A DNA stretch of 27,376 nt from a virus (Duplodnaviria; Caudoviricetes): IMG/VR virus record IMGVR_UViG_3300033109_000112, positions 1 through 27,376 of that record. One strand, written 5' to 3'. Made by a program: the position numbers and the translations under genes. The notes under the pieces are model-generated. The model had not been told where the DNA came from. It did not search any database and was given only the letters and a program-made list of their open reading frames with translations. Within the stretch, counting starts at the first letter, position 1. Each line of letters opens with the position of its first letter. Positions 1,474-25,162 of this stretch are shown one piece after another.

Positions 1474-1815
1474 TCATGAGTTGATATAGACCAAAATAGC
1501 GAATCCGCAAACCACACAAATGGCTGACACAAGTTCTGGGTAAAGCTTTAAACGAGATGGGCGTAAACTTAACAGAATGCCAAAGAAAAAGCCTTTCCAG
1601 TTACCGCGAAGCCCGGCCAGCCATGCGCCGAATTCATCGTGATTTCCTTTGGCATGATATTGCTCATGCGCCAAAACAGATGCCTGAACACATTTTGGCA
1701 AATCATTTCTAATGTAAATTTTAGGCTCTGCGCCTGAAAAGTGTTGAGTAACACCGAAATAATCGCCTCGAAACCGAGCAAACATTTCAAATTTAGATAG
1801 ATATATTATTTGCAT
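1474..1815 (-). CDS. Small HEXXH (zincin/ImmA-IrrE-like) protein with hydrophobic C-terminus
   Basis: IYIRNDLP...SVLAHEQYH...DE motif; C-terminal LVSAICVVCGFAILVYI; starts 6 bp after the tail fibre stop. Confidence 0.6.
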   Translation of the reverse strand: MQIIYLSKFEMFARFRGDYFGVTQHFSGAEPKIYIRNDLPKCVQASVLAHEQYHAKGNHDEFGAWLAGLRGNWKGFFFGILLSLRPSRLKLYPELVSAICVVCGFAILVYINS

Positions 1816-1821
1816 ATTTTG

Positions 1822-2541
1822 CTAGCTCTTGCGTGTCACGTAGGCGACTAATTTACCTACACCATTCGTGGAGTCCCCGCCAGAAGAGGAGGCGTTTAAA
1901 ACCATCTCTACGGCGGCAGCTGATGTGACCCTAAATTCACCTCGTGATTTCAAATTCCAGGTCGGAGTATCTGCAGTGTACACAAATAAGATATTTGGCA
2001 TCTCACTACCATAACCGTCCAAATACTCAACTGTACCAGAGGCTATATCAATTCTGGCGCTCACAAGGCCATTGCCTGTTTTAATCCCTTGAACCCACCA
2101 CTGAAAATGTATTAAATCACCAACCTGTAACGCACCTAAATTCAAACGCTGAAGCTCAGTCAACGTAGATGTGATCGTTTTTGAAGCCACAAAAGGCGCC
2201 TTACTCCAATCAACCACTCGATTTTCAACCGTTGTTGTTAAACCTAATGTGTTTCTGGCCGCTGCTTGAGTTGTGTCGTCCAATAGGTTTTGCATAAATG
2301 CAGTAACACCAAGTCTGGACAGCGTAATTTTGGCAGTAATCGCGGCCAGCAACTGGTTGCGTGTCAGTTTATCCAGCGCAATAGATTCACTCGCAATGAC
2401 ATTCACGATTTCTTCTTGCACTGCATTTAACCAATCCGCTTCAACGATGGTTTGCGATTGGAAATATCCATTCGGCTGAGGGCCAACCGCTTGCGGTGTA
2501 GGCAATGTGGGAGCGCTGGTGGCATTATCAACACGATGCAT
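1822..2541 (-). CDS. Short tail fibre protein with Mu-like N-terminal baseplate anchor
   Basis: MHRVD...ADWLNAVQEEIVNVI...QLLAAI anchor; AFMQNLLDDTTQAAARNTLGL fibre-type motif; beta-rich C-terminus; follows the gp48-like gene. Confidence 0.8.
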   Translation of the reverse strand: MHRVDNATSAPTLPTPQAVGPQPNGYFQSQTIVEADWLNAVQEEIVNVIASESIALDKLTRNQLLAAITAKITLSRLGVTAFMQNLLDDTTQAAARNTLGLTTTVENRVVDWSKAPFVASKTITSTLTELQRLNLGALQVGDLIHFQWWVQGIKTGNGLVSARIDIASGTVEYLDGYGSEMPNILFVYTADTPTWNLKSRGEFRVTSAAAVEMVLNASSSGGDSTNGVGKLVAYVTRKS

Positions 2542-12891: not shown

Positions 12892-14955
12892 TTAGGTGTT
12901 GGGGTTTTTGGCCATAGTGCGATGATCCAGCGCTTTCACACCGGCATCGAGGCGCACCTTGAATTCCACGCCATCAATGTTCCAACCGTTCTGCTGTTCC
13001 AGCACCGGCATCTTGTTGCCATCGAGGTAGGCCACCTCGATGGTGTCGTGCACAGCCGGGTCAGCGGCGCCATACCAGTTGGTGGCGCTGGCGGTATCCA
13101 GACGCGCATCGGCAATCACTTTGAAAGTGTTGCGCACGGAATTGGGCACGGTGTTGTTTTTGCTGGATGCACCCACTTCGAACTCGGACGTGGCGACCAC
13201 TTGCGCGGTACCCTGCAGTGCCACCGGCACCAGCAGGTTGGCCAGGCGAATATTGAGCGCCTTGCCGCCAGCGGTTTGCTTGGCCATGGCGACGCGCATG
13301 GCATCCACGCCGGGCGTAGAAATGGCAGCAGCAGTCAGCAGGTTGGCGTGGGTGGCATGGAACAGGGCCACGCCATCGGCCATATTGGGGTTGCCGGTAA
13401 GAATGGCATAAACCAGATCGCCCACAGTGCGAATGGCCGCACCACCCATCTTGCGCGGAATGCGCGTGAAGGCGGTCAGGTCATCATTGATGATGGCCTG
13501 GCGGGTAATACCAAACAGCTTGCCGTAAGTGGCGAGCTGAATGGTTTCGCCACGCTCACCCACGGTGGCATATTTGTATTCCGCGCCTTCGCGTACCTGA
13601 TCCAGCGCCGGAAAATCATTCAGACCGACACGGCTGCCGGGTTTGAAATCGGTGAGTACGCCATCAGACGTCCATTCCTGAAACGTCTCGCCGGCTTCCT
13701 CGTAACCCTTGAGCATGGCCTTTTCGGCCACGTTGGCCAGCAGCAGCGGAAAATCACTGCCGGTATGCGTGAAGGCGGCTGCCACCAGTCCCATTTTGTC
13801 CATGTGGCCGGTGTTCACACCGCGCTTGTCCAGGCAGGCACGGGCCAGCTCGAACAGGGTGTGGCTGCGATACGGATTGGCCGTATCGTTTTTGCTTAAG
13901 CTGGCACGAATCAGCAGGGCATCGCGAATGGCTGCGCGGAACTTGTCGCGCTCATCCGCCACGGTAACAACATAGCCGCCTGCAATGGGTGCAGACTGCG
14001 AGCCCAGATGCGCCAGCAGTTTGGTATTGGCCTGTTCGACCGTGCACTGATGATCATCGGCGCAGGTTTTCATGAGGGCAGATACGCCCTCAACGCCAGA
14101 GAATTTGGCAAACGCCGTTTCGATATCGGTACGGCGCTGTTTATCAGCTGCCAGCGCACGTGCCTGAATGTCAGCTTCGCTGGCAACAGGTGCAACGGCT
14201 GCGGGTGCAACAGACGTGGATGCGGCTGCGGGTTGTGCCGCCTGTACTTCTTTAGGCATGGTGGCCTCCGGTGAGTTGTGAATAGCGGCGGCTGCCGCAT
14301 GAGGTACTTTCACCGCTGCCACAGCAGACAGTGAGGTGAATCGGGCGGCCAGTGCCGCGCGGTCAAACGAGGCCGCCACCGGCATAGCCGTGGTGGTGGC
14401 ATCAATGAATTTTGCATCCAGCGCCTGGCTGGCGGTAAACCAGTGATCAACGCCATCGGTGAGCAGCGCCTGCATTTCATCGAGGGCGCGGCCGGTTTTT
14501 GCGGCATAGCTGGTGGCCATGGCAGCGGCCCAGGTATCGAGCAGATCGGCAAACTCGCGCAGCTCGGCGGCGTTGCCATACATGCCGCCCCAGGGCGCGT
14601 GAATCATCAGCAGGGCGTTTTCGGCCATTTCAACCGTGTCGCCTGCCATGGCAATCAGGCTGGCAATGCTGACAGCCACGCCATCAATGCTCACGGTGAT
14701 GTGTGCAGGATGACGCTTCAAGGCGTTGTAAATGGCAATGCCATCGGACACCGAACCGCCGTAGGAATTAATGCGCACGGTAATCGCATCCACATCGAGC
14801 GCGGCGATGTCGCGCACAAACTCGGCTGCTGTGACGGAATCGGCATACCAGCTGTCGCCGATATCGCCGTAGATAAAAACTTCAGCGGCACGTGGCGCGG
14901 ATGCGCGCACACGTACGTTGTACCAGGGAGATGATGCGGTGATTTTATTGGGCAT
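12892..14955 (-). CDS. ClpP-like prohead protease / major capsid protein fusion
   Basis: N-terminal S14 motifs (INSYGGSV, DGVAVSIASLIAMAGD, MIHAPW); Ala/Pro-rich linker; capsid motifs (SDFPLLL.NVAEK, TYGKLFGITRQAIINDD, VEFKVRLDAG). Confidence 0.95.
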   Translation of the reverse strand: MPNKITASSPWYNVRVRASAPRAAEVFIYGDIGDSWYADSVTAAEFVRDIAALDVDAITVRINSYGGSVSDGIAIYNALKRHPAHITVSIDGVAVSIASLIAMAGDTVEMAENALLMIHAPWGGMYGNAAELREFADLLDTWAAAMATSYAAKTGRALDEMQALLTDGVDHWFTASQALDAKFIDATTTAMPVAASFDRAALAARFTSLSAVAAVKVPHAAAAAIHNSPEATMPKEVQAAQPAAASTSVAPAAVAPVASEADIQARALAADKQRRTDIETAFAKFSGVEGVSALMKTCADDHQCTVEQANTKLLAHLGSQSAPIAGGYVVTVADERDKFRAAIRDALLIRASLSKNDTANPYRSHTLFELARACLDKRGVNTGHMDKMGLVAAAFTHTGSDFPLLLANVAEKAMLKGYEEAGETFQEWTSDGVLTDFKPGSRVGLNDFPALDQVREGAEYKYATVGERGETIQLATYGKLFGITRQAIINDDLTAFTRIPRKMGGAAIRTVGDLVYAILTGNPNMADGVALFHATHANLLTAAAISTPGVDAMRVAMAKQTAGGKALNIRLANLLVPVALQGTAQVVATSEFEVGASSKNNTVPNSVRNTFKVIADARLDTASATNWYGAADPAVHDTIEVAYLDGNKMPVLEQQNGWNIDGVEFKVRLDAGVKALDHRTMAKNPNT

Positions 14956-15014
14956 TACATGATCCTGATCTCTGCGATGTTATTTACGCGCAAGCGGCGC
15001 GCCTCGATAATCGC

Positions 15015-15057
15015 AGTGTGGCCGTGGGCCTGTGACATTTTTAGGGGAAAATGGCAA
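15015..15057 (-). promoter_or_regulatory. Late promoter with Mor/C-type activator box (copy 1), upstream of the capsid/tail operon
   Basis: 26-bp GTGACATTTTTAGGGGAAAATGGCAA (15032-15057) identical to 22454-22479; -10-like CACACT 11 bp downstream on the minus strand. Confidence 0.75.
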
Positions 15058-15063
15058 TTTCTT

Positions 15064-15339
15064 TCAGGGCGCGGGATGCAGGATATTTACCGTATCAATC
15101 AGTTTGTCGCACTGATCTGCCAGCATGTGGTATTGCCTGGCCCACTGTATAAACGTGGCGGTAGCCTCGGGTTGCGACACGGCAACACCCGTGGGCAACG
15201 CCGGTAAATCGGGCGCTTTAATCAGCAGATTCGCTGGCACGGATACGCTGGTAGTGATCGGCGCGCGAGACGAGGGAGTTGAGCAGGCTGACATCGTCAG
15301 GCTGATAATTACACTGAGGCACAGCAGGAACTTTTTCAT
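15064..15339 (-). CDS. o-spanin (Rz1-like lipoprotein)
   Basis: MKKFLLCLSVIISLTMSAC lipoprotein signal; Pro-rich; overlaps the i-spanin 3' end in another frame. Confidence 0.8.
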   Translation of the reverse strand: MKKFLLCLSVIISLTMSACSTPSSRAPITTSVSVPANLLIKAPDLPALPTGVAVSQPEATATFIQWARQYHMLADQCDKLIDTVNILHPAP

Positions 15340-15592
15340 AGATCACCCGGGTGACGGTAGTGAAATGCGGATCACTGCGCGCCTGTAATAACTCGGCAGA
15401 TAACCGGTTAACTTGCGCCTGCAGCAGAGTGTTTTTTTCAATGGCCGCAACCAGGTCGGCATTATCCTGTTTCAAATGCGTGGCCTCACATTCGGCAACG
15501 CCCGCAGCATGTTGGGCTTGGGTGTACCAGACGGCGACTGATACGAGCAGCAGAATCAATAGGCCAGCAGTAATGGCTTTGGCGCGTGTCAT
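15218..15592 (-). CDS. i-spanin (Rz-like)
   Basis: N-terminal TM (AITAGLLILLLVSVAVWY), coiled-coil, C-terminal Cys; overlaps o-spanin. Confidence 0.8.
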   Translation of the reverse strand: MTRAKAITAGLLILLLVSVAVWYTQAQHAAGVAECEATHLKQDNADLVAAIEKNTLLQAQVNRLSAELLQARSDPHFTTVTRVIYEKVPAVPQCNYQPDDVSLLNSLVSRADHYQRIRASESAD

Positions 15593-15885
15593 GGTGCCGG
15601 CAGCTTTGCCGCGGTAATACGCCCGACGCGATCCAGCACATCACTGGAATACGCCGCTACACCAAATGCAGTGAGTACGGTGAGCTCGTTGTATTGATGC
15701 AGCACGGCAACGCCCACAATGGAGCTGATGATGGCCAGGGTAAATTTGTACGGGCGCTTGCGGGTGTAATAGGTAAAACCCACGCGCCGGCCCGCAGCGC
15801 TGGACATTTCTTGCAATATGAGCAACAGGTGGGTGAACTGGCCGAGCACAGCAGCCAGCATGCAGAGGTATAAATCGTGCGTCAT
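15589..15885 (-). CDS. Putative holin
   Basis: 98 aa, 2-3 hydrophobic segments with basic loop (YTRKRPYK); ATGA-coupled to i-spanin. Confidence 0.6.
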   Translation of the reverse strand: MTHDLYLCMLAAVLGQFTHLLLILQEMSSAAGRRVGFTYYTRKRPYKFTLAIISSIVGVAVLHQYNELTVLTAFGVAAYSSDVLDRVGRITAAKLPAP

Positions 15886-16520
15886 GGCGATGGCTCCAGG
15901 TGAACCTGCATGGGTGGGTTAGCGTAAACCTTGCGCTCCCAACGATCCTTGGCAGCATCATCGCCGGAGGATTTGATTTGGTGCGGCAGCCATTGCAGAT
16001 TTGAAACCGCATCACAACCACCCACCGCGAGCGGAATAACATGATCAATCGCCCAGCCGGGGCATGCGCCGGTGGTTAAACCGGTGGCGGGACACGGATG
16101 AATTTTGCGAAACGCCTTGAGCACAGCGCTGCTGCGTTTGATGCCACCACCTGCAGCATAACGTTCTGGCTCACCGCAATAGCGAGTCTCTTGCAAATTA
16201 TCTGCCTTGGCAGATGACGCCCATAACGCACCACCGATAAATAGCAACATAAACACGACGCCAAAAAGCGCCGGCGGGCTCAGGCCTGATATGCTTTGAA
16301 CCCTTACCCAGAAATAATACAAACAGGCCATGAACCAGTTAGACCGCTCGCGCATACAGCTGTAAAGCATCTTGTCAGCGGTAGCAGCACTGACCAGCTT
16401 GTCGCGTCTGGCGTAGTCGTGAATCCGGCAACAGCTGCCCCATGTTCCATCAGGGGCGAGTGTGCAGCCGTCTGACTTGAAATGCTCCGGAATTTTGGTC
16501 TCGTAGTCTTTAAATTTCAT
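15882..16520 (-). CDS. Fusion: phospholipase A2-like domain + membrane/signal segment + HNH-type nuclease domain
   Basis: Start MKFKDY at 16520 (ATGA overlap); SDGCT...WGSCCRIHD...ADKML..CM; hydrophobic LFGVVFMLLFIGGALWASSAKA; HPCPATG...CPGWAIDHVIPLAVGGCDAVSNLQWL...KDRWE. Confidence 0.75.
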   Translation of the reverse strand: MKFKDYETKIPEHFKSDGCTLAPDGTWGSCCRIHDYARRDKLVSAATADKMLYSCMRERSNWFMACLYYFWVRVQSISGLSPPALFGVVFMLLFIGGALWASSAKADNLQETRYCGEPERYAAGGGIKRSSAVLKAFRKIHPCPATGLTTGACPGWAIDHVIPLAVGGCDAVSNLQWLPHQIKSSGDDAAKDRWERKVYANPPMQVHLEPSP

Positions 16521-17029
16521 CGATGACAGTCCGCTGTTATTCGCACCCCTGTGAACGGTGCAACATCTGGAACCCATGACATAACCCAATTACTGCATAT
16601 CATATTTACGCCATTAGTCCAGTCGGCCAATGTATATGTGATCGTAGTAACTTGTTGCGTCCAGAAAGCTATGTCGGCGTGATCCAGAACAAGTCCGTGT
16701 ATGACTGGCGGGTTTACGGTTGCATCAACAACCCCCTCCATGCGCCATTGATAAAAACCACCAGAGCTATCCGGAAACAGCATCCACCTGAATCCTGTAT
16801 CAGTATCCGTAATGAAGGATGCTATACGTGACACCTGGGTTCCATTGCTTGTATTCAAGATAAAATCGACAGTACCGCAATACGCGATTGCACTCGTGCA
16901 ACCAAGTTTTGTTTGATAATCTTCGGCGCTGGTAGTTACCGGTACAGACAGCCGCGGCAAATCGACTTGCCCAAGTTTGCAACCCGATAAAACAAACAGC
17001 ATAACAACAAGGAATAAGAATTTTTTCAT
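16517..17029 (-). CDS. Lipoprotein of unknown function
   Basis: MKKFLFLVVMLFVLSGC lipobox at ATG 17029 with GAGG RBS; +2 residue Lys (suggests outer membrane by the enterobacterial rule). Confidence 0.8.
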   Translation of the reverse strand: MKKFLFLVVMLFVLSGCKLGQVDLPRLSVPVTTSAEDYQTKLGCTSAIAYCGTVDFILNTSNGTQVSRIASFITDTDTGFRWMLFPDSSGGFYQWRMEGVVDATVNPPVIHGLVLDHADIAFWTQQVTTITYTLADWTNGVNMICSNWVMSWVPDVAPFTGVRITADCHR

Positions 17030-17036
17030 TTTAGCC

Positions 17037-18521
17037 TCATACTCTAGAAGGTTGATTACTACCGACTTTGAATATAGCACCACACTCCAGTCTCACTTCG
17101 CTCTGCAGTTCCACATTAATTTGAAATACTGGTAAATCACCACGCACATCAGCACAAAGCGTATGCCATCGATGATGGCCATGCTCTGTGATGCCACTCT
17201 CCTGGGTGTACACAACAGATGTGCCACCATAACCACCACCATCAACACAATTAGCAATAGCTCCAGCTGATGACAATCCAAAATTGATGGAACCATTAGA
17301 GCTACCAAGAAACCAGCTCCACCAGTTTTCAGCAGCATTACCTGCGTAAGCGGCTGCTTGATTGTTATACACACCGCCTCGATGCGTATCGCCATGCCAC
17401 ACAAGCAAGAATGCTAATGTGCCATTTGTTTTTGGATTATCCATCAAGCTTTTTTGCGTTGCCCCAGTGCGCGTGTACAAACGTCGATATTCTTCAATAC
17501 AATGATTGAATAATGGATGTTGTTGTCCTGCTTGAAATTCTGGCGTTGCAGCAGTCGCGGCTTCAAAATATCTATCGCCGACATTCATCACTAATATTTT
17601 GCAAGCTTCATCTGTATTCAACGCGTCAAGGCAATCATCAATCTGGTTGTTGCCAAGCTGCGTGGTAATAGCAGTTGTGCCATCGATATAACCACCGGAG
17701 CCATTTGTGACATTGTCGGTAGCAACAATACGGGTATTCCCAACGGTAATACCCCAGTGCAAAGCAGTTATGTCACGATTGCGGATATCCGTCTCAGGAC
17801 GCAACGGACTAAACAGCGCATTAAAAACGCCTATTGCAGTATCGTACAGCGCGCCCGGTCCAGCGTTATCCCAACCACGATCATTCTCCACTTCCCAGTC
17901 GCCGATTTGCAGCATCCATGGCATGTTTCGTGTCACATACACACGATCCGCATCACGCCCCCAGCGAATATTACGATCGGAAGTATCTGCGAGCATTCCA
18001 AGATTGTTCGCGTAAGACAAAACATAATCAGCAGCCAATCCACTGACAGCAGCCGAATTTGTATGTGCCAACCCAAGTATTACGTCATTAACTGTTTGTT
18101 TAGACGGATATCCCCAATCATCAGCGAATATCATGTAATGTAATCCACCAGCCTTGCGTGATTTCGCAATGCGGCCATAGCCGCCTTTCTGAGCACCGCC
18201 GAAAACAGCTGAAGGATTGTCACACCCATTAAACCAGAGCTTGCAACGTGTGAATGCATCGCAATTTGTTGTTACACTGCAATCGCTTTCAGTAATACTG
18301 CCTTGTTGCAATGTAACGGGATAAATTGTGGCAGGTGCCAGGTTATAAAACGTAACATGGCCATAATACAAAACACCGATTTGAGCCAATATTGGTGTTT
18401 TAGTTTCACCATTACACATTACAGATATAGGTGAATTGATAAAGCTGCAAACAAGAACGACCGCGCTATTCATGCGCGGTGCGCCACACATAAAACCTAT
18501 CTGCCGTCTTTCTGCAAGCAT
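17037..18521 (-). CDS. Divergent PhoD-like metallophosphoesterase with FN3-like N-terminal domain
   Basis: VTFYNLAPATIY; ordered motifs FNGCD, FADDWGY, IGDWEVEND, QLGNNQ...L, WHGDTH matching PhoD's ASC, GDxxY, WDDHEVxN, LGxxQxxWL, GDxH; no Tat/Sec signal. Confidence 0.7.
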   Translation of the reverse strand: MLAERRQIGFMCGAPRMNSAVVLVCSFINSPISVMCNGETKTPILAQIGVLYYGHVTFYNLAPATIYPVTLQQGSITESDCSVTTNCDAFTRCKLWFNGCDNPSAVFGGAQKGGYGRIAKSRKAGGLHYMIFADDWGYPSKQTVNDVILGLAHTNSAAVSGLAADYVLSYANNLGMLADTSDRNIRWGRDADRVYVTRNMPWMLQIGDWEVENDRGWDNAGPGALYDTAIGVFNALFSPLRPETDIRNRDITALHWGITVGNTRIVATDNVTNGSGGYIDGTTAITTQLGNNQIDDCLDALNTDEACKILVMNVGDRYFEAATAATPEFQAGQQHPLFNHCIEEYRRLYTRTGATQKSLMDNPKTNGTLAFLLVWHGDTHRGGVYNNQAAAYAGNAAENWWSWFLGSSNGSINFGLSSAGAIANCVDGGGYGGTSVVYTQESGITEHGHHRWHTLCADVRGDLPVFQINVELQSEVRLECGAIFKVGSNQPSRV

Positions 18522-19414
18522 CAGAAACGATCCATCCAGTGAGGCAGTGAATAAGTCGGAGCGCGAGCAAGGCGATCAGCCAATTCATAAAAATCAGCTT
18601 GCGCGTTATCGTATCCAGACAAATCCATAATGAACAAATCACGCACACGAGTCTCTGGCGAAGTTGATGGAGTTCTGGCATCAATAGTCGTGCCGCTATT
18701 CAATGCACCAAACATCCAACCTGCACCAGTCAAAGTCAGTTCATCTGCAGCAGGCAACAATGTTGCTTTGCCAGAAACCGTTTGTGCAACTCCATTTCTC
18801 GCTGAAAGAATTTCACCGTGAGCAAAATCTAACAAGACAGCACAACGCCATGCAGAGTTTTGCGACAAACTCGCGTTCATCAAATCGGCCTGTGTAACGG
18901 TCAACCCTTTTTGAATACCAAGATTCAACGCGCCTGTGGCAGGATTAATTCCAATACTGATTCCATCCGCATTGGTGGCAGTATTACGATTTCCGAAAGA
19001 CAAAAGACCACCGTTTGTGACGGCTCCTGTCGGGTTGAATATTGTAGCAGCTAGAAATAATCTTCCTCCACCAATACCGTTCACCGTGCCCGCGCTGAGC
19101 AACTTGCGGCCAAGTGAAAATAATCCATCTTCTGTGACAGGGTTATAATCATGCCCGGCACCGGGCCAGAAATAGTCATTATCATTGGTTGGATCAGGTG
19201 TGAAATAACCTTCGTTATTATCAGCGGTAGAATCCGCATCAACACACGGAAAAACGCCAGGGCATCCTTGTATATTGCTAATGACGGGTATGCCTGTAGT
19301 CTGCAATGCAGACCCGGCAGCGATGGCAAGCGGAAAAAAGATAAACGGTGATTCAATATTATCTGCAGCCCATGCAGCACCGTGACTAAACGTATTTGGT
19401 ATTTTGTTTTTCAT
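18521..19414 (-). CDS. Putative LamG/concanavalin A-like jelly-roll protein
   Basis: GGLLSFG...GISIGIN...LNLGI...WRCAVLLD....ILSARNG...WMFGA...VRDLFIMD pattern; start 19414 (ATGA overlap, GGAG RBS). Confidence 0.55.
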   Translation of the reverse strand: MKNKIPNTFSHGAAWAADNIESPFIFFPLAIAAGSALQTTGIPVISNIQGCPGVFPCVDADSTADNNEGYFTPDPTNDNDYFWPGAGHDYNPVTEDGLFSLGRKLLSAGTVNGIGGGRLFLAATIFNPTGAVTNGGLLSFGNRNTATNADGISIGINPATGALNLGIQKGLTVTQADLMNASLSQNSAWRCAVLLDFAHGEILSARNGVAQTVSGKATLLPAADELTLTGAGWMFGALNSGTTIDARTPSTSPETRVRDLFIMDLSGYDNAQADFYELADRLARAPTYSLPHWMDRF

Positions 19415-19923
19415 GCACATACTCCTGTCAGAACGGAGTTGCCCACCACAGTACCAGCGGATGAAATCGGGATGGTGTAAATGTCAGTGATGTCTGCATC
19501 ACTTGGTATCCAAATAAACCCAGCGTCAGGAGGAATGACAAGACTTCCGCTGTTAGTATCTGCATCAACTGTAGCCCCTGTTGCATAAAGGCCAGTTGCC
19601 ATTGCCGCGACTAGACGGTCTTTCGCTGTGACAGGATTTCCTGCATTCCATGTAAGCCACCAACCAAGGTGAGTATTACCTGTTACCCGATCTCTTGACG
19701 CTGCAACAGCAAGACGTTTCTTGCCGCTCGGCATTGACCATGCAATTATGTCAACAGCACTTACAGTTACGGCAGCACCTGGAACAAGTCCTGTGTTTCC
19801 ATTCATGCAGCGTGCTATACGAAATTCGCCATCAGTTGGAGATTGATCATCAGTTACACATAACGCTCCGTCATCGGTATAACGTTTTATAATTCCTGTT
19901 ATGGGATCGACTTCAATTTGCAT
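19411..19923 (-). CDS. Hypothetical protein (Gly/Ala/Thr-rich, probably beta-rich)
   Basis: 170-aa ORF with GAGG RBS, coupled to the next gene; no recognised family. Confidence 0.7.
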   Translation of the reverse strand: MQIEVDPITGIIKRYTDDGALCVTDDQSPTDGEFRIARCMNGNTGLVPGAAVTVSAVDIIAWSMPSGKKRLAVAASRDRVTGNTHLGWWLTWNAGNPVTAKDRLVAAMATGLYATGATVDADTNSGSLVIPPDAGFIWIPSDADITDIYTIPISSAGTVVGNSVLTGVCA

Positions 19924-19935
19924 ACTCGCCTCGCC

Positions 19936-20388
19936 TTACACGATACCGTTAAGTTTTTTCGGTTTGCCGTTAATAAATTGAATGGTGAAAACCTCTTTAC
20001 GTGCTGGCGTTATGTCAGCATGAAAAGCAATATGTACCCATGTGCCTTCGTAAATTAATTGTTTGAACTGAACAATTTCGGCATGCTGTGCAATAGCTTC
20101 TGCCACTTGTTTAGGCGTGCCAAATTGCGGGCAGGTGAAATCATCTGCCAGAAATTTCATATGATCAGAGTCATCCGATCCGCCAACGGCTGCATTTAAT
20201 TCGGGGCAGCGATATCCGCTTGAGCTGTGCATTGGAAAACACAGAATTCCGCGCACACGCTCCAGACCGCGAGCCAGGGTAAAAGCATTGTGTAACAGGT
20301 CCGCGGGCGGGACATTTTTAATGCCTTTACGCAACGCAATATCACTGGCGGTTAATTCGGCCATGGTGAAATGCATCGACAAATTCAT
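19936..20388 (-). CDS. Endolysin, peptidase M15 family
   Basis: LSMHFTMAEL..S, SSGYRCPELNAAVGG..SDH....ADDF, WVHI zinc motifs. Confidence 0.92.
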   Translation of the reverse strand: MNLSMHFTMAELTASDIALRKGIKNVPPADLLHNAFTLARGLERVRGILCFPMHSSSGYRCPELNAAVGGSDDSDHMKFLADDFTCPQFGTPKQVAEAIAQHAEIVQFKQLIYEGTWVHIAFHADITPARKEVFTIQFINGKPKKLNGIV

Positions 20389-20684
20389 CCGTCACTCTCC
20401 TGTTCCGAAAACGTCAGCGCAGAGCGGTTGGCGATGTTGCTCAAACGATCCACGGTTAACTTCAGTTGGCGCAGTTCGTTGCGCAGTTGTACGTTTTCCG
20501 TTTGCAGGCGCGTTATTTCTTCGCGCAAACTGGTCACCAGTGATTGCATGGTTTCAATCGCGGTGATGTTGCCGCCATCGTTTTTCCAGCTCACCTGCAG
20601 TTTGCGCAACGCCACGACGCCGCCCACCAATGCCACTACCACACCCGCGCCGAATTCTTTTAAGCCCTCAATCTCCAGCGCCAT
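20385..20684 (-). CDS. Single-TM plus coiled-coil protein (holin/antiholin-like)
   Basis: Start MALEIEG at 20684; TM FGAGVVVALVGGVVAL; heptads LREEITRLQTENVQLRNELRQLKL; ATGA-coupled to endolysin. Confidence 0.6.
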   Translation of the reverse strand: MALEIEGLKEFGAGVVVALVGGVVALRKLQVSWKNDGGNITAIETMQSLVTSLREEITRLQTENVQLRNELRQLKLTVDRLSNIANRSALTFSEQESDG

Positions 20685-22215
20685 TAGTACCGCCGTTATT
20701 GTTGTTATTGACTGATTCGCGCAAATAATCTTGCGCCGTGCCGGCCTGGCTGGTGCGGCGCGCATCGGAATCGAACATTAAATTATTTTCATCTGCGTAT
20801 TGCCGCCACTTCTTGATTTGCTCCAGCACGTTCGAGGGCGTGCCGCCGCGCTTGCGAATCACTTCCACTTCGCTGGCAAAACCAGCTCGCACCAGGTGGG
20901 TGAACGCCACAGCTTCTTTCAGCGGATCAATCCACGGCATGCTGGTGCCAATGTACAGGGCATCATCTGCTGTGTCGGGCAGCACAGCGCGCGGGCGCGG
21001 TACCACGCCGGATAAGTGCGCGGTGAGCACAAACGCTTCCCATACCGGGCGCACAAACTGGCCGGTGAATTCATCGGTGAGGGTGGCGTAGTTGCTCCAC
21101 TGCTCAACCAGCTCTTGCCGCTGCGAGGAATACGTGCCGCTGTAATCACGCGATACGGAGGAATAGCTGGCACCGATACCGGTGGCGAATGCGCGCAACT
21201 GGCCTTGCCGCCAGGTCACCACATTCGGGTTGGGGCGCTTCGAATCAATCAGGCCAATCTCTTCGCCGGGCAGCAACGAATCTATGAACATGCCGGGCTG
21301 GAAACGCATTTCGCGCGGCAGTAAATTGCCTTCGGTGTCGCGTGTCGCCTGGGCGGGGTCGTACAAATCCGGTGTGCCACGCTTGACGTAGGCGGTGAGC
21401 ATGGCGGCAATTTTAGCGGCGACGCGCTCGGACTCTTCATAGTCTTTCAAATCTTCGAGCCTGGTAATCACGCTGGCAAATTCGCTCACGCCGCGCAGCT
21501 GGCCAATGCGGTCAATGCAGGTGAGACGCAGCATGCGATCAGCGGGTACGCGCTTGAGGTTGGGCTTGGTGGTAACAGCTTCGCCGGGGTTGTCTTTATA
21601 CACGTGATACGCCACGGGCCGACCCCAGGCGTTGCACTCAATGCCCTGTTTGATGCGCCGGGCATCATCAAAATAATCCAGCGGCACCATGTCGGGCTCG
21701 AGTAGTTCAAGGCTGTAGGGTACGCGTGTGCCGTGATCCAGCAGCGCCACCGGGCCGATAAGTTGTTGCGCCAGCGATTCGCCGTCACGCAGCCAGGTGC
21801 GCGCCATGAGGCGTTGCACGCGGGCAAAATGATGTTGCTGAGTCACCTCGGGTTTGCGGCACCAGTCGCGCCAGGCTTCGAGCAGGGCCTTGGCATAATC
21901 GGCGTGGATGTCGCCATTGGCTATGCGCGGTTGCGGCTCAATGCCAATGCCGGCAGGGCCTACCACGTTATTCACCAGCACACGCAGGGCGCCGCGGGCG
22001 ATGTCGTGGTTTTGCTCCAAATGGCGAATCTGGGTGCGCAGCGGCACAGCGCCCTGCTGCACTTGTGTATTGGGTGAGCTGGTATCGCGGCGGAATTTGC
22101 GCAGGCGCGAGGGTTCGGCGGCTTCGTAATAAGCCAGCGCGCCACGGGCCGCGCGGCGCTTTAACGCCAGCTGGGGCGAGAATTGTTCAACGAGCCAGTC
22201 AATGGGATGGCGCAT
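20668..22215 (-). CDS. Portal protein, lambda family
   Basis: NNVVG..GI..PQP, RDGE, GRPVAYH, QLRGVS.FA.V, SRDYSGTYSSQRQELVE, WIDPLKE motifs. Confidence 0.96.
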   Translation of the reverse strand: MRHPIDWLVEQFSPQLALKRRAARGALAYYEAAEPSRLRKFRRDTSSPNTQVQQGAVPLRTQIRHLEQNHDIARGALRVLVNNVVGPAGIGIEPQPRIANGDIHADYAKALLEAWRDWCRKPEVTQQHHFARVQRLMARTWLRDGESLAQQLIGPVALLDHGTRVPYSLELLEPDMVPLDYFDDARRIKQGIECNAWGRPVAYHVYKDNPGEAVTTKPNLKRVPADRMLRLTCIDRIGQLRGVSEFASVITRLEDLKDYEESERVAAKIAAMLTAYVKRGTPDLYDPAQATRDTEGNLLPREMRFQPGMFIDSLLPGEEIGLIDSKRPNPNVVTWRQGQLRAFATGIGASYSSVSRDYSGTYSSQRQELVEQWSNYATLTDEFTGQFVRPVWEAFVLTAHLSGVVPRPRAVLPDTADDALYIGTSMPWIDPLKEAVAFTHLVRAGFASEVEVIRKRGGTPSNVLEQIKKWRQYADENNLMFDSDARRTSQAGTAQDYLRESVNNNNNGGTNGAGD

Positions 22216-22614: not shown

Positions 22615-23007
22615 CTAAAATGGAAGGTTTTTATCTTCATCGGGCCATATGGGGATTGGCACGGTTTGCCCTGCAAGCGCATGTGTGCAATCGCCGAGAA
22701 ACTGGATCTGGCCGTCGCACACGAATGAGTGACAAATCAAGTCGACGCTTTCAAATTCGGGCGGCGTGTATGCTCGACCGCTGGCAAGCCATTCCCTGAA
22801 GTCGGCGTGCCCCTTTGCGGTCATCTGCCGGCCTTTGACGAGTATCGAAGGGCTAAATGTCGGGCGCTCGGCATCGCCGTTATATGTCCAGCGCGGGCCT
22901 GGGCCTTCACCGATTCTGACCATATGCATGCGGTCACACCCTGGGCACCAGAATGCTAAACCGTTACTGACTGTATCCCGCAAAATTTTTGAAAGCGCGC
23001 TCATCAT
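22615..23007 (-). CDS. DUF6527-like protein
   Basis: FWCPGC..H, WTYNGD..RPTFSPSILV, CHSFVCDGQIQFLGDCTHALAGQTV motifs; start 23007 ATGA-coupled to Mor. Confidence 0.8.
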   Translation of the reverse strand: MMSALSKILRDTVSNGLAFWCPGCDRMHMVRIGEGPGPRWTYNGDAERPTFSPSILVKGRQMTAKGHADFREWLASGRAYTPPEFESVDLICHSFVCDGQIQFLGDCTHALAGQTVPIPIWPDEDKNLPF

Positions 23008-23321
23008 TTTCCCCCGATAATCCGATGCCCCTGCCGATTCGACAGGCCATATTTGCGGCACAATTCATCCAGGTTGCGACCGTTGAATTCTGCCCGAAAC
23101 AGGCTGTCGCGTTCGGCACGTTCGGCGCGTGAACCATTGGCGGGGATGTACATATCCAGCCCGCCAAAACGTTTGCGCAAACCGCGGGTAATGGCTTCGG
23201 CAAAGTGCGAGGCCAGCGCTTCGGAAAGCCCGGTTTCTTCACGCACAATAGCCGTGACTTCATACAGCAGCGATATGGCGGCGTCATCGTTATGTGCGCC
23301 GGGTGCGTTGGCGATGGTCAT
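23004..23321 (-). CDS. Mor/C-family transcription activator
   Basis: RFGGLDMYIP...RD..FRAEFNGRNLDELCRKYGLSNRQGHRII; start 23321 ATGA-coupled to terL. Confidence 0.9.
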   Translation of the reverse strand: MTIANAPGAHNDDAAISLLYEVTAIVREETGLSEALASHFAEAITRGLRKRFGGLDMYIPANGSRAERAERDSLFRAEFNGRNLDELCRKYGLSNRQGHRIIGGK

Positions 23322-25162
23322 AGCTTGTTGGCCCACTCGTTGTTGGTAAGGTGGTGCCCTGCAGGCGGTTTTATTATTTTTGGGGCGTCGGCCGCGGGTG
23401 ACGCGCCCGGCTTGCGGCTGGCCGGTAACAATCGGCGCGCCACCAGCGCCAGCAGCATGCAGTCCAGGGCCTCGTTGCGCGGGCGGGTTTGTACCCATTC
23501 CTGGTAGGGGCGGCCGTGGCGGGCTTTGGTAACCAGTTTTTCGGCGGCGAGCTGCGCAAAATATTCGTCATCGAAATCCGGTGTATTGGGAAAATGCATA
23601 TAGCCCGGCCCGGCCTGGGTGAGTTTGAGCCGGGCATAGAGGATGGCCTTGCCCTGATCTACCCCCACCGGTTCGAGCGGCGCGCCCTTGCGGCGGCGGG
23701 TGCGCAGGCGCTGGGCGCGCTTGCGCTCATCCTCGATGAGCGGGCGGCCCATGCCGGTGACGCCCTTGGTGGCCGTGCACCAGCGGCGCTTATCGCAAAA
23801 GGCATACACCATGCTGGTGTTGTAGCCGGAGTCAATGCAGGCATGCTGCACCCGTGCCTCCGTGAGCACCTGGTGCAGTTCGTCCCATACTGCGGGCTCG
23901 GTGGTGTCACCATCAAGCACCAGATGCGACAGGGCCCAGCCCTCTTCGCCCTCATCCCGCCAGCCGATAATGCTGACCTCGATGCGATCTTTCTGCACAT
24001 CCGCGCCCGCCGTGATGTCGCGCACCGGCAAGCTCACCGGGTACTCTTCCAGCCGGGCAATAAGTGCCAGGCCATCTACGCTTTCGCCCTGCTCTTCCCA
24101 GGTTTCACCCAGGGTGGTGTTCACAAATCGCTTAAGGCGTGATGTGTCGCCGTGAGACCGCTGCCATTCGCTCCACAATTCGTGCCACGTGAAACCTAAA
24201 CCCAGCGGGGCATACAGGCCGTTGATGTGGTAGCCGCGCACATCGCGCTCGGGGTATTTCGGGATCCACACGCCGCGTTCCAGCATGGCGGGTTTGTGGT
24301 GTTCGTCAATGCGGCTGCCGCACTCACGGCAGGCATAAAAGACTTCGCCGGTACTGCTGTGGTGGATGAGGCCATAGTTGCCATCGTCATGCCGCCAGCG
24401 CAGCACCTGGGGGGTGTAGCAATGCGGACAAGGTACGTGGAACTGACGCTGATCGGAGGCCAGGTATTCTTGCTCGATGCGGCTTTGGCCCTTGACCGTA
24501 GGCGTGGAGACCAGCAGCACCTTGCGACGCGGGAACGCTTTGGTGCGTTCGTCAATCAGGCCGAGTGGATCGCCCTCCTGGCCAACCTCCCAGGGGAAGC
24601 GGTCCAGCTCATCGCACAGCACGTTACAGATGGGCATGGAGGCCAGCGACGCCGGGGAGTTGGCGCCACCGATGACCAGCATGCCGCCTGGGAAATCTTT
24701 CAAATCCTCGCTGTTGCCGGCATCGCGTGAGCGGCGTGCATCGAGTAAATCGCGCAGCACCGGCGTTTCGGTGAGCATGGGATCCAGGCGCTGCCGTACC
24801 CAGCGCTTGCGCACCTCCAGCGTGGGCACCGCCACCAGCGTCGGTGCCGGGGCGTGTTCCATGATGTAGCCCAGCCAGTTGAGGCCGATTTCGGTTTTAC
24901 CCACCTGCGCACAACTCATCACCACTACCCGTTGCGCGACACTGGTGATGGAGAGGGCATCCATGATGTCGCGCAGGAACGGCGTGCGTGAGGTGTCCCA
25001 CCGGCCCGGCTCGGCGCTGCCCTTGCTCGACAGCACGCGGTAAGTATCGGCCCACTGACTCACCCGCACCACGGGCCGGGGGCGCAATGCGTCGGCCAGC
25101 ACCCGGTATAACTCCGGGCGGGCCGATGGCAGGGTGATGCTGGATTGGCGGGCTAGCATCAA
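23318..25162 (-). CDS. terL: Terminase large subunit, lambda GpA family
   Basis: AQVGKTE Walker A, VLCDELDRFP Walker B, STPT, CPHC/CREC zinc pair, GADVQKDR and RNEALDC nuclease motifs. Confidence 0.97.
   Translation of the reverse strand: MMLARQSSITLPSARPELYRVLADALRPRPVVRVSQWADTYRVLSSKGSAEPGRWDTSRTPFLRDIMDALSITSVAQRVVVMSCAQVGKTEIGLNWLGYIMEHAPAPTLVAVPTLEVRKRWVRQRLDPMLTETPVLRDLLDARRSRDAGNSEDLKDFPGGMLVIGGANSPASLASMPICNVLCDELDRFPWEVGQEGDPLGLIDERTKAFPRRKVLLVSTPTVKGQSRIEQEYLASDQRQFHVPCPHCYTPQVLRWRHDDGNYGLIHHSSTGEVFYACRECGSRIDEHHKPAMLERGVWIPKYPERDVRGYHINGLYAPLGLGFTWHELWSEWQRSHGDTSRLKRFVNTTLGETWEEQGESVDGLALIARLEEYPVSLPVRDITAGADVQKDRIEVSIIGWRDEGEEGWALSHLVLDGDTTEPAVWDELHQVLTEARVQHACIDSGYNTSMVYAFCDKRRWCTATKGVTGMGRPLIEDERKRAQRLRTRRRKGAPLEPVGVDQGKAILYARLKLTQAGPGYMHFPNTPDFDDEYFAQLAAEKLVTKARHGRPYQEWVQTRPRNEALDCMLLALVARRLLPASRKPGASPAADAPKIIKPPAGHHLTNNEWANKL

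Follow-up and report, generated by a model that had tools for sequence, protein, structure and literature searches.

A recurrent three-gene layout around a PhoD-like phosphoesterase in phage genomes: a candidate mobile virion appendage

Two described capsid spikes stand closest to the locus discussed here. The head spike of the Rhodobacter capsulatus gene transfer agent (RcGTA) has a pentameric base, Rcc01079, and a head fibre, Rcc01080, that binds capsule (PMC7296036). The turret of Haloferax tailed virus 1 (HFTV1) has a base, gp30, and a head, gp31, and includes a carbohydrate-binding domain and a deacetylase-like domain, for which glycan deacetylation has been proposed (PMC12494034). In addition, XepA and YomS of Bacillus prophages are small beta-sandwich proteins of lysis cassettes, proposed to be related to capsid vertices (PMC6834076), and a PhoD-type gene of cyanophages consistently lies beside fibre genes (10.64898/2026.02.14.705889). 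Here, we describe five tandem open reading frames (ORF1 to ORF5) in IMGVR_UViG_3300033109_000112, a temperate myophage whose entire 27.4-kb record is the window that was analysed. We conclude, with a probability of roughly 0.55, that ORF1, ORF2 and ORF3 form a mobile virion appendage (base, lectin and phosphodiesterase) that would grip and clip phospho-polymers on the host surface.

The RcGTA spike resembles this arrangement in its gene order, i.e., a small jelly-roll base gene followed by the gene for a capsule-binding fibre, and differs in that the accessible text describes no enzyme for it (PMC7296036). The likeness to HFTV1 is one of proposed logic, with a capsid-mounted base carrying both a glycan binder and an enzyme that modifies host glycans (PMC12494034). 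HFTV1 differs in being an archaeal virus, in having a deacetylase-like rather than a PhoD-like enzyme, and in holding the binding and enzyme domains on one chain; the two are likened by description only. XepA and YomS recall ORF1 as small beta-sandwich proteins encoded in a lysis cassette, a similarity that is a weak lead (ESM feature score 0.87; structural Z 4.5–4.7), and the accessible text mentions no lectin or phosphoesterase partner for them (PMC6834076). Cyanophage phoD shares the fibre-gene neighbourhood and differs in being read as metabolic and as separately transcribed, again likened by description (10.64898/2026.02.14.705889). No description of a lectin–PhoD cassette was found in the literature searched, most subscription papers falling outside that search.

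Gene layout and its recurrence

All five ORFs lie on the minus strand. ORF1 (19411..19923; 170 amino acids [aa]) is gene A of the three-gene cassette and encodes a putative jelly-roll base or adaptor. Gene B, ORF2 (18521..19414, 297 aa when started at the ATGA overlap, or to 19420 and 299 aa), has a predicted laminin G (LamG)/concanavalin A-like lectin fold. The product of gene C, ORF3 (17037..18521; 494 aa), is a PhoD-like metallophosphoesterase that has a beta-sandwich at its N-terminus and lacks a signal peptide. Pfam, PHROGs and NCBIfam assign no family to any of the three. An earlier note on this DNA had described five co-oriented ORFs joined by start/stop overlaps, and the overlaps are indeed as given: ATGA at 19411-19414, 16517-16520 and 15882-15885, and TGATG at 18519-18523. 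It had also seen no internal promoter; in agreement, positions 14900-20900 hold zero sigma-70-like sites on the minus strand, and five on the plus strand compared with 8.9 expected. Chance ORFs are ruled out by homologues and invariant ligands (see below).

The three-gene layout recurs across unrelated uncultured phages. Our collection holds 19 locus identifiers of the ORF3 family, two of them duplicates (L011 of L001, and L016 of L005). The 17 distinct loci, of which L013 and L017 have no upstream DNA, are all phage or prophage DNA. A co-oriented gene B of 220–312 aa stands directly upstream of the enzyme gene in 14 of the 15 assessable loci, the exception being L003, and a gene A of 144–200 aa precedes gene B in 10 of the 15. 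L001 carries orthologues of ORF1, ORF2 and ORF3 in order (69, 48 and 57% identity), directly behind a major capsid gene that belongs to another head module. Most of the loci away from lysis-like genes have the cassette behind the capsid gene or amid tail or packaging genes; these lysis-like and structural labels were assigned from translations by eye, not with hidden Markov models (HMMs). The earlier note had raised co-occurrence in other phages for the whole block. The layout of ORF1–ORF3 recurs; ORF4 and the HNH domain of ORF5 are probably not tied to the cassette.

Eight B proteins are interlinked at E ≤1e-3, those of L008 and L009 form a pair, that of L004 has a weak Laminin_G_3 match, and the upstream gene of L019 matches none of the others. 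Profiles of the A and B groups returned nothing useful from the PDB. Among the 18 members of the ORF3 family longer than 620 aa, four have a C-terminal extension that the B profile recognises (E 4e-11 to 2e-5 at Z=1000), and three more resemble B proteins weakly, indicating that the enzyme and a B-type domain have repeatedly become a single chain. Three other members are fused to virion domains, namely tail tube, SU10 adaptor and DUF2793. As a separate observation, the whole extensions of P0109, P0150 and P0160 resemble one another (mutual E ~1e-34) and include a common, unnamed domain that lies between the PhoD-like and the B-type parts.

A likeness to RcGTA is seen in L009. There, a 77-aa gene at the start of the locus, two genes before gene B, encodes a true RcGTA-type spike base, the only one to pass the NF048002 cut-off (41.2 bits, cut-off 28), and gene B, just before the enzyme gene, starts with IGLGINL, a motif like the anchor of alternating leucines in the RcGTA head fibre (PMC7296036). 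The PhoD-like gene of L009 is followed by genes of 762 and 378 aa with no Pfam match (L009:9768-13192), which may encode further appendage enzymes.

A LamG fold had been guessed for ORF2, and the guess is supported by its ESM Atlas features, which score 0.97 against a Laminin_G_3 cluster. The Atlas model, of moderate confidence (predicted local distance difference test [pLDDT] 0.53), aligns with ten models at template modelling (TM) scores of 0.58–0.69, eight of them from Laminin_G_3 clusters. ORF2 has four homologues, at 48–55% identity, and no Pfam HMM match. From these models we predict that ORF2 is a LamG lectin, which would bind a host-surface glycan.

The ORF3 family and its metal ligands

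The PhoD-like fold first suggested for ORF3 holds up well. Its AlphaFold model has a pLDDT of 96.8 and a predicted TM score of 0.95, and the first-ranked Foldseek match is Bacillus subtilis PhoD, 2YEQ (E 1.4e-18, TM 0.58), with purple acid phosphatases next. A profile of the ORF3 family also recovers 2YEQ from the PDB (E 9e-7), as well as Streptomyces 9UYA (E 7e-6); single-sequence PDB searches with ORF2 and ORF3 gave nothing useful. The family misses the gathering score of the PhoD model, PF09423: ORF3 has no match, two of the ten members of alignment A1 match with E 0.0034 at best, and the best score observed is 21.7 bits against a cut-off of 27.

The family is large and unnamed. A profile built from nine relatives of ORF3 and searched against 1.84 billion representatives found 241 clusters (50% identity) at E ≤1e-3, 219 at 1e-10 and 182 at 1e-30. 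In GTDB genomes, pattern scans, which are insensitive, found no locus with alignment A1 and, with alignment A4, a single prophage locus (L019) in a Thiobacillus metagenome-assembled genome, which points to one host genus. Since the fold is predicted with high confidence and the family comprises 241 clusters, ORF3 can be directly expressed and assayed.

We aligned 130 full-length members, drawn from the best 150 of the 241 clusters plus earlier matches. The Cys-Asp-Tyr-His iron site of PhoD is present. The Fe3+ ligands C100, D135, Y138 and H380 of ORF3 correspond to the motifs of C124, D151, Y154 and H382 in mature PhoD, and are kept in 130, 128, 130 and 130 of the 130 members, respectively. 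For Ca2+, the near-invariant ligands of PhoD are Asp265, Asp266, Asn271, Asn272 and Asp436 (PMC4223295, the numbering of which equals chain numbering + 56). The last four map to D208, N213, D214 and D378 of ORF3; three of these four remaining positions are alike (D208, N213/D214 and D378), D208 being kept in 117/130 members and D378 in 129/130. An extra aspartate, D134, is present in 122 of the 130 at a position where PhoD has Gly and could replace the lost Ca2+ ligand.

ORF3 is therefore PhoD-like by fold, N-terminal beta-sandwich and iron site, yet a non-canonical member. It differs from PhoD in its low identity (11–13%), in scoring below the Pfam cut-off, in having Gly for Asp265 and a conserved Asp134, and in the absence of a signal peptide, and its family differs in occurring in phages beside a lectin-type gene. 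In a simple motif and hydropathy screen, none of 154 family members has a twin-arginine translocation motif and one has a strongly hydrophobic N-terminal stretch. A canonical secreted PhoD is ruled out by the missing export signal and the lost ligand. Members of the PhoD group are phosphodiesterases with teichoic acid or phospholipid as proposed targets (PMC4223295).

Proposed function and competing explanations

In the appendage that we propose, ORF1, a predicted jelly-roll, would dock on the particle. ORF2 would carry ORF3 and attach to a glycan on the host surface, and ORF3, predicted to be an iron/calcium phosphoesterase of PhoD fold, would cleave phosphodiester bonds within capsule or another polymer of that surface. 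Synthesis of ORF3 would be late and cytoplasmic; because it has no signal peptide, the enzyme would meet its substrate only once particles carrying it have left the cell. The proposal draws on the recurrent layout, the enzyme–B fusions, the spike base of L009, the fusions to virion domains, the lack of export signals, the variable portal–capsid slot described below, and the HFTV1 and PhoD precedents. The appendage might clear a path to a membrane receptor, or free particles stuck on the cell surface or on debris. A virion-borne, surface-polymer-degrading appendage was the last option in the earlier note. It fits best for ORF1–ORF3 and does not extend to ORF4 or ORF5. A structure prediction for the ORF3–ORF2 complex scored 0.00, gave no verdict and is counted neither way. 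For Enterococcus phage Idefix, BFVD gives the label “virion protein with calcineurin-like phosphoesterase domain”, which finds no backing in the main text of PMC6356687.

More tentatively, the cassette may be a widespread, undescribed type of plug-in virion spike, with a purple iron/calcium phosphodiesterase and a rebuilt calcium site. Phages of Gram-negative bacteria with podo-, sipho- or myophage-type genomes would exchange its three genes as a unit and use it to strip capsules held together by phosphodiester bonds. If so, hundreds of phage “phoD” genes would encode host-range depolymerases rather than phosphate scavengers. Among known capsid spikes, which bind capsule in RcGTA and are proposed to deacetylate glycans in HFTV1, a PhoD-type phosphodiesterase spike would add a new chemistry for entry through phosphate-linked surface polymers. 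Such a spike, if real, would also be a caution against scoring the phoD-like genes of phages as metabolic genes of the phosphorus cycle.

Several results weigh against the virion appendage. The model of ORF1 is poor (pLDDT 55.9) and its structural matches are generic jelly rolls with Z 4.4–7.2 (picornavirus capsid 7.2, turret protein A223 of Sulfolobus turreted icosahedral virus 5.2, XepA 4.7, YomS 4.5), all below 8, under which no more than a common arrangement is indicated. Its ESM feature hits (unnamed clusters 0.91, XepA 0.87, PRD1 P5 spike N 0.81) are leads only. The ORF1 model has no BFVD match at E ≤0.001, and the RcGTA base is absent among the best 50 matches listed for it, which excludes nothing. 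Neither of the NCBIfam spike models recognises ORF1 (170 aa) or ORF2 and, in a further difference from RcGTA, the N-terminus of ORF2 lacks the alternating-leucine anchor. Beyond L001, profile-profile and shuffle tests of ORF1 and ORF2 against the A and B genes gave scores not above shuffles, with one apparent bridge, P0173, barely over them (8.1 vs 7.5 bits); the wider equivalence of the cassettes therefore rests on position, size and the fold of ORF2. Where the tail tube and adaptor domains join the enzyme there is a Met; both fusions could stem from loss of a stop codon or from misassembly. No cultured phage with the family came to light when GenBank phages were searched with three queries (ORF3 and two relatives), the enzyme gene of L003 (L003:5029-6651) stands without A or B amid apparent replication genes, and in ~7 of the 17 loci (L002, L006, L008, L009, L014, L015 and L017) the cassette is near lysis-like genes. 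Finally, the equivalent of PhoD Asp265 is Gly207 in ORF3 and Gly in 124/130 members, and the next residue, His in 117/130, is Trp in ORF3 and 11 others. Because an essential Asp is Gly and this His is Trp, catalytic activity of ORF3 is unproven.

The lysis-gene context invites a different account, in which the trio is soluble, made late and released at lysis rather than mounted on the virion, and, like XepA, attacks envelope phospholipid or surface polymer for progeny escape. XepA forms a jelly-roll pentamer, is encoded in a lytic cassette and is missing from mature particles (PMC6834076); it is also the nearest named ESM feature hit of ORF1 (0.87, with Z 4.7), and one PhoD member is a phospholipase D (PMC4223295). 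In the window, the cassette lies inside the lysis cassette and shares the low GC content of the endolysin gene; in L006, it lies between lysozyme-like and spanin-like genes, as judged by eye. We nevertheless consider a soluble complex unlikely, since the XepA scores are under the trust levels of the tools, the cassette comes right after the capsid gene or amid tail genes in L001, L004, L018 and L019, and both the spike base of L009 and the fusions to virion domains speak for the particle. Alternatively, the appendage might be real and ORF3 a weak or dead PhoD fold that only binds phosphorylated surface polymers, i.e., a second receptor-binding protein. The family-wide Gly argues for this, as D265A abolished the activity of B. 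subtilis PhoD (PMC4223295), together with the neighbouring His-to-Trp change that ORF3 shares with few members (12/130 alike). Against it stand the iron ligands Cys, Tyr and His, invariant in 130/130, the retention of D135, D208 and D378 in 128, 117 and 129 of 130, and D134 (122/130), which could substitute for the lost ligand; we rate this account lower again, as quite improbable.

Very unlikely, in our judgement, is an auxiliary metabolic role, with ORF3 as a phosphatase that frees phosphate for replication and its neighbours incidental. Such a role has been read into cyanophage phoD, which lies beside neck-fibre genes and is transcribed separately (10.64898/2026.02.14.705889), and would suit the solitary gene of L003. 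It fits poorly with a family that has no export signal and is nearly absent from cellular genomes, with the late-operon position and the start/stop coupling to the lectin gene, and with the repeated fusion of the enzyme to an upstream-type domain. The leading proposal of the earlier note, that all five genes make up one lysis-timed module degrading envelope, phospholipid and extracellular DNA, is the least credible account, and we regard it as extremely unlikely despite the co-orientation, the overlaps and the lack of an internal promoter. Some neighbours do hint at a wider unit: the L005 cassette has an unmistakable homologue of the N-terminal domain of ORF5 nearby, compared with none in 114 control loci, a looser motif match lies directly upstream of the L014 cassette, and the lipoproteins of L014 and L015 are faintly like ORF4. 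However, an ORF5 HNH homologue occurs in 0/17 cassette loci, and homologues of ORF1–ORF4 or of the N-terminal half of ORF5 in 0/46 loci with HNH homologues. In addition, the cassette is often away from lysis genes, ORF5 is a singleton with a different GC content, and ORF4 and the HNH part of ORF5 are predicted to be exported, unlike ORF1–ORF3.

ORF4, ORF5 and the surrounding genes

ORF4 (16517..17029, minus strand; 170 aa from the ATG after a GAGG site) encodes a lipoprotein with its lipobox at Cys17. The lipoprotein signal noticed earlier is visible as this lipobox; the LPAM_1 match is weak (E 0.015, below cut-off). ORF4 has no clear homologue, and GenBank phages gave no match to it. With a profile of the lysis-cassette lipoproteins of L014 and L015, ORF4 ranks first after the profile members among ~9,300 ORFs, at 9.5 bits compared with a maximum of 8.4 in 2,000 shuffles (E 0.12–0.79, with 0.12 for the 9.5-bit score).

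ORF5 (15882..16520, minus strand; 212 aa) has a DUF1353/phospholipase A2 (PLA2)-like N-domain (~1–80), one transmembrane segment (84–102) and an HNH domain. The HNH assignment made earlier is confirmed by phrog_333 (E 1.2e-4), with Pfam HNH_5 below cut-off. The PLA2-like label is not confirmed. It rests on a motif, Cys-Cys-x-x-His-Asp in the N-terminal half, which we take to be PLA2-type; this half has no PLA2 family match, and what it does match is phrog_6098 (function unknown), phrog_1158 and, weakly, DUF1353 (E 0.064). In all 46 viral loci found with the HNH half, the match is to a stand-alone protein and begins only from residue 73 onward. GenBank phages gave one match to ORF5, also in the HNH half, and ORF5 is a singleton. 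A separate 85-aa protein of L005, encoded 1.6 kb downstream of the PhoD-like gene, is homologous to the N-domain (E 1e-14), and the look-alike in L014 shares the motif only. ORF5 thus likely arose by fusion of two small genes that normally stand apart. Segment 84–102 would place the halves on opposite sides of a membrane, as if the signal of the HNH protein had been internalised by the fusion. The HNH proteins of the 46 loci (L020–L065) are 98–188 aa long, nearly all with signal-like N-termini and often beside lysis or tail genes, and look like an exported phage nuclease.

ORF5 was rejected as a member of the cassette, given the absence of HNH from the 17 cassette loci and a GC content outside the low-GC island. 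ORF4 and ORF5 are likely independent accessory genes of the lysis region. The data hint that the cassette is sometimes accompanied by DUF1353-like genes and by lipoproteins from lysis regions, which falls short of showing a five-gene unit.

The earlier note had also called the five-gene block AT-richer than the core. Its two sampled lines do have 21/60 and 45/60 GC, and the block is AT-richer on average (mean GC 0.474, core 0.579), but its limits were misplaced, as the island runs from the endolysin gene through ORF4 and leaves ORF5 outside. Gene by gene, GC is 0.457 for the endolysin, 0.472 for ORF1, 0.463 for ORF2, 0.457 for ORF3 and 0.458 for ORF4, with GC at third codon positions (GC3) of 0.31–0.44 across this range of 0.457–0.472. 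ORF5 (GC 0.540, GC3 0.57) resembles the 98-aa holin-like ORF (0.562) and the spanin genes (0.536–0.554). The foreign low-GC block is the endolysin gene plus ORF1–ORF4, and in this phage the cassette probably arrived together with the endolysin gene and ORF4 as a single block.

The endolysin (19936..20388, minus strand) is a Peptidase M15 protein (Peptidase_M15_3, E 1e-15). On the other side of the block, and on the same strand, lie a candidate 98-aa holin-like membrane protein with a hydrophobic N-terminal segment (15589..15885), an Rz-like spanin (15218-15592, PHROG E 2e-6) and its lipoprotein-like partner (15064-15339), called from a lipobox and the overlap with the Rz-like gene. The block had been said to separate the endolysin from the holin. 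This does not stand as worded: the 98-aa ORF has no lysis-family match in Pfam or PHROGs, and the gene directly upstream of the endolysin gene (20385..20765, minus strand, the true start probably near 20684) is another holin-like candidate, with one hydrophobic segment, a predicted coiled coil and a match to phrog_8369 at E 0.0017. Holin candidates stand on both sides of the block.

Family scans of the window found an integrase, a lambda-type terminase and portal, a ClpP–capsid fusion and a Mu-type contractile tail. The five ORFs and the lysis genes fill the 5.7 kb between the portal end (20668) and the start of the capsid gene (14955). We compared 68 loci whose capsid gene is related to that of the window; a portal is also present in 57. 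Gaps were measured between the ends of tblastn matches. The gap is <300 nt in 42 of the 57, 0.7–1.0 kb in four and 1.7–6.3 kb in 11, and the block and lysis genes have no homologue in any of the 68 loci. Among 18 proteins scanned from the inserts of seven of these loci, four match beta-helix, collagen, LamG or Gp77 fibre-adaptor families; the other 14 have no match. Gap lengths and insert matches together indicate that the portal–capsid slot is a variable insertion site, which holds appendage-type genes in some relatives. Small ORFs that close the inserts in three relatives (L082:8622-8903, L090:8666-8854 and L108:8660-8893) have a Gly/Leu/Phe-rich N-terminus and a basic C-terminus, and may encode anchor peptides.

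Elsewhere in the window, a Mor-family late activator gene and a DUF6527 gene lie between the large terminase and the head-tail adaptor (22615-23498, minus strand). The phage's own tail fibre, in the region 1474-2541 (minus strand), is a short protein of 239 aa with an AT-rich gene (GC 0.463). It is followed within that region by a 113-aa ORF (GC 0.412) without a family match, which has an HEQYH stretch that presumably resembles a zinc-peptidase motif.

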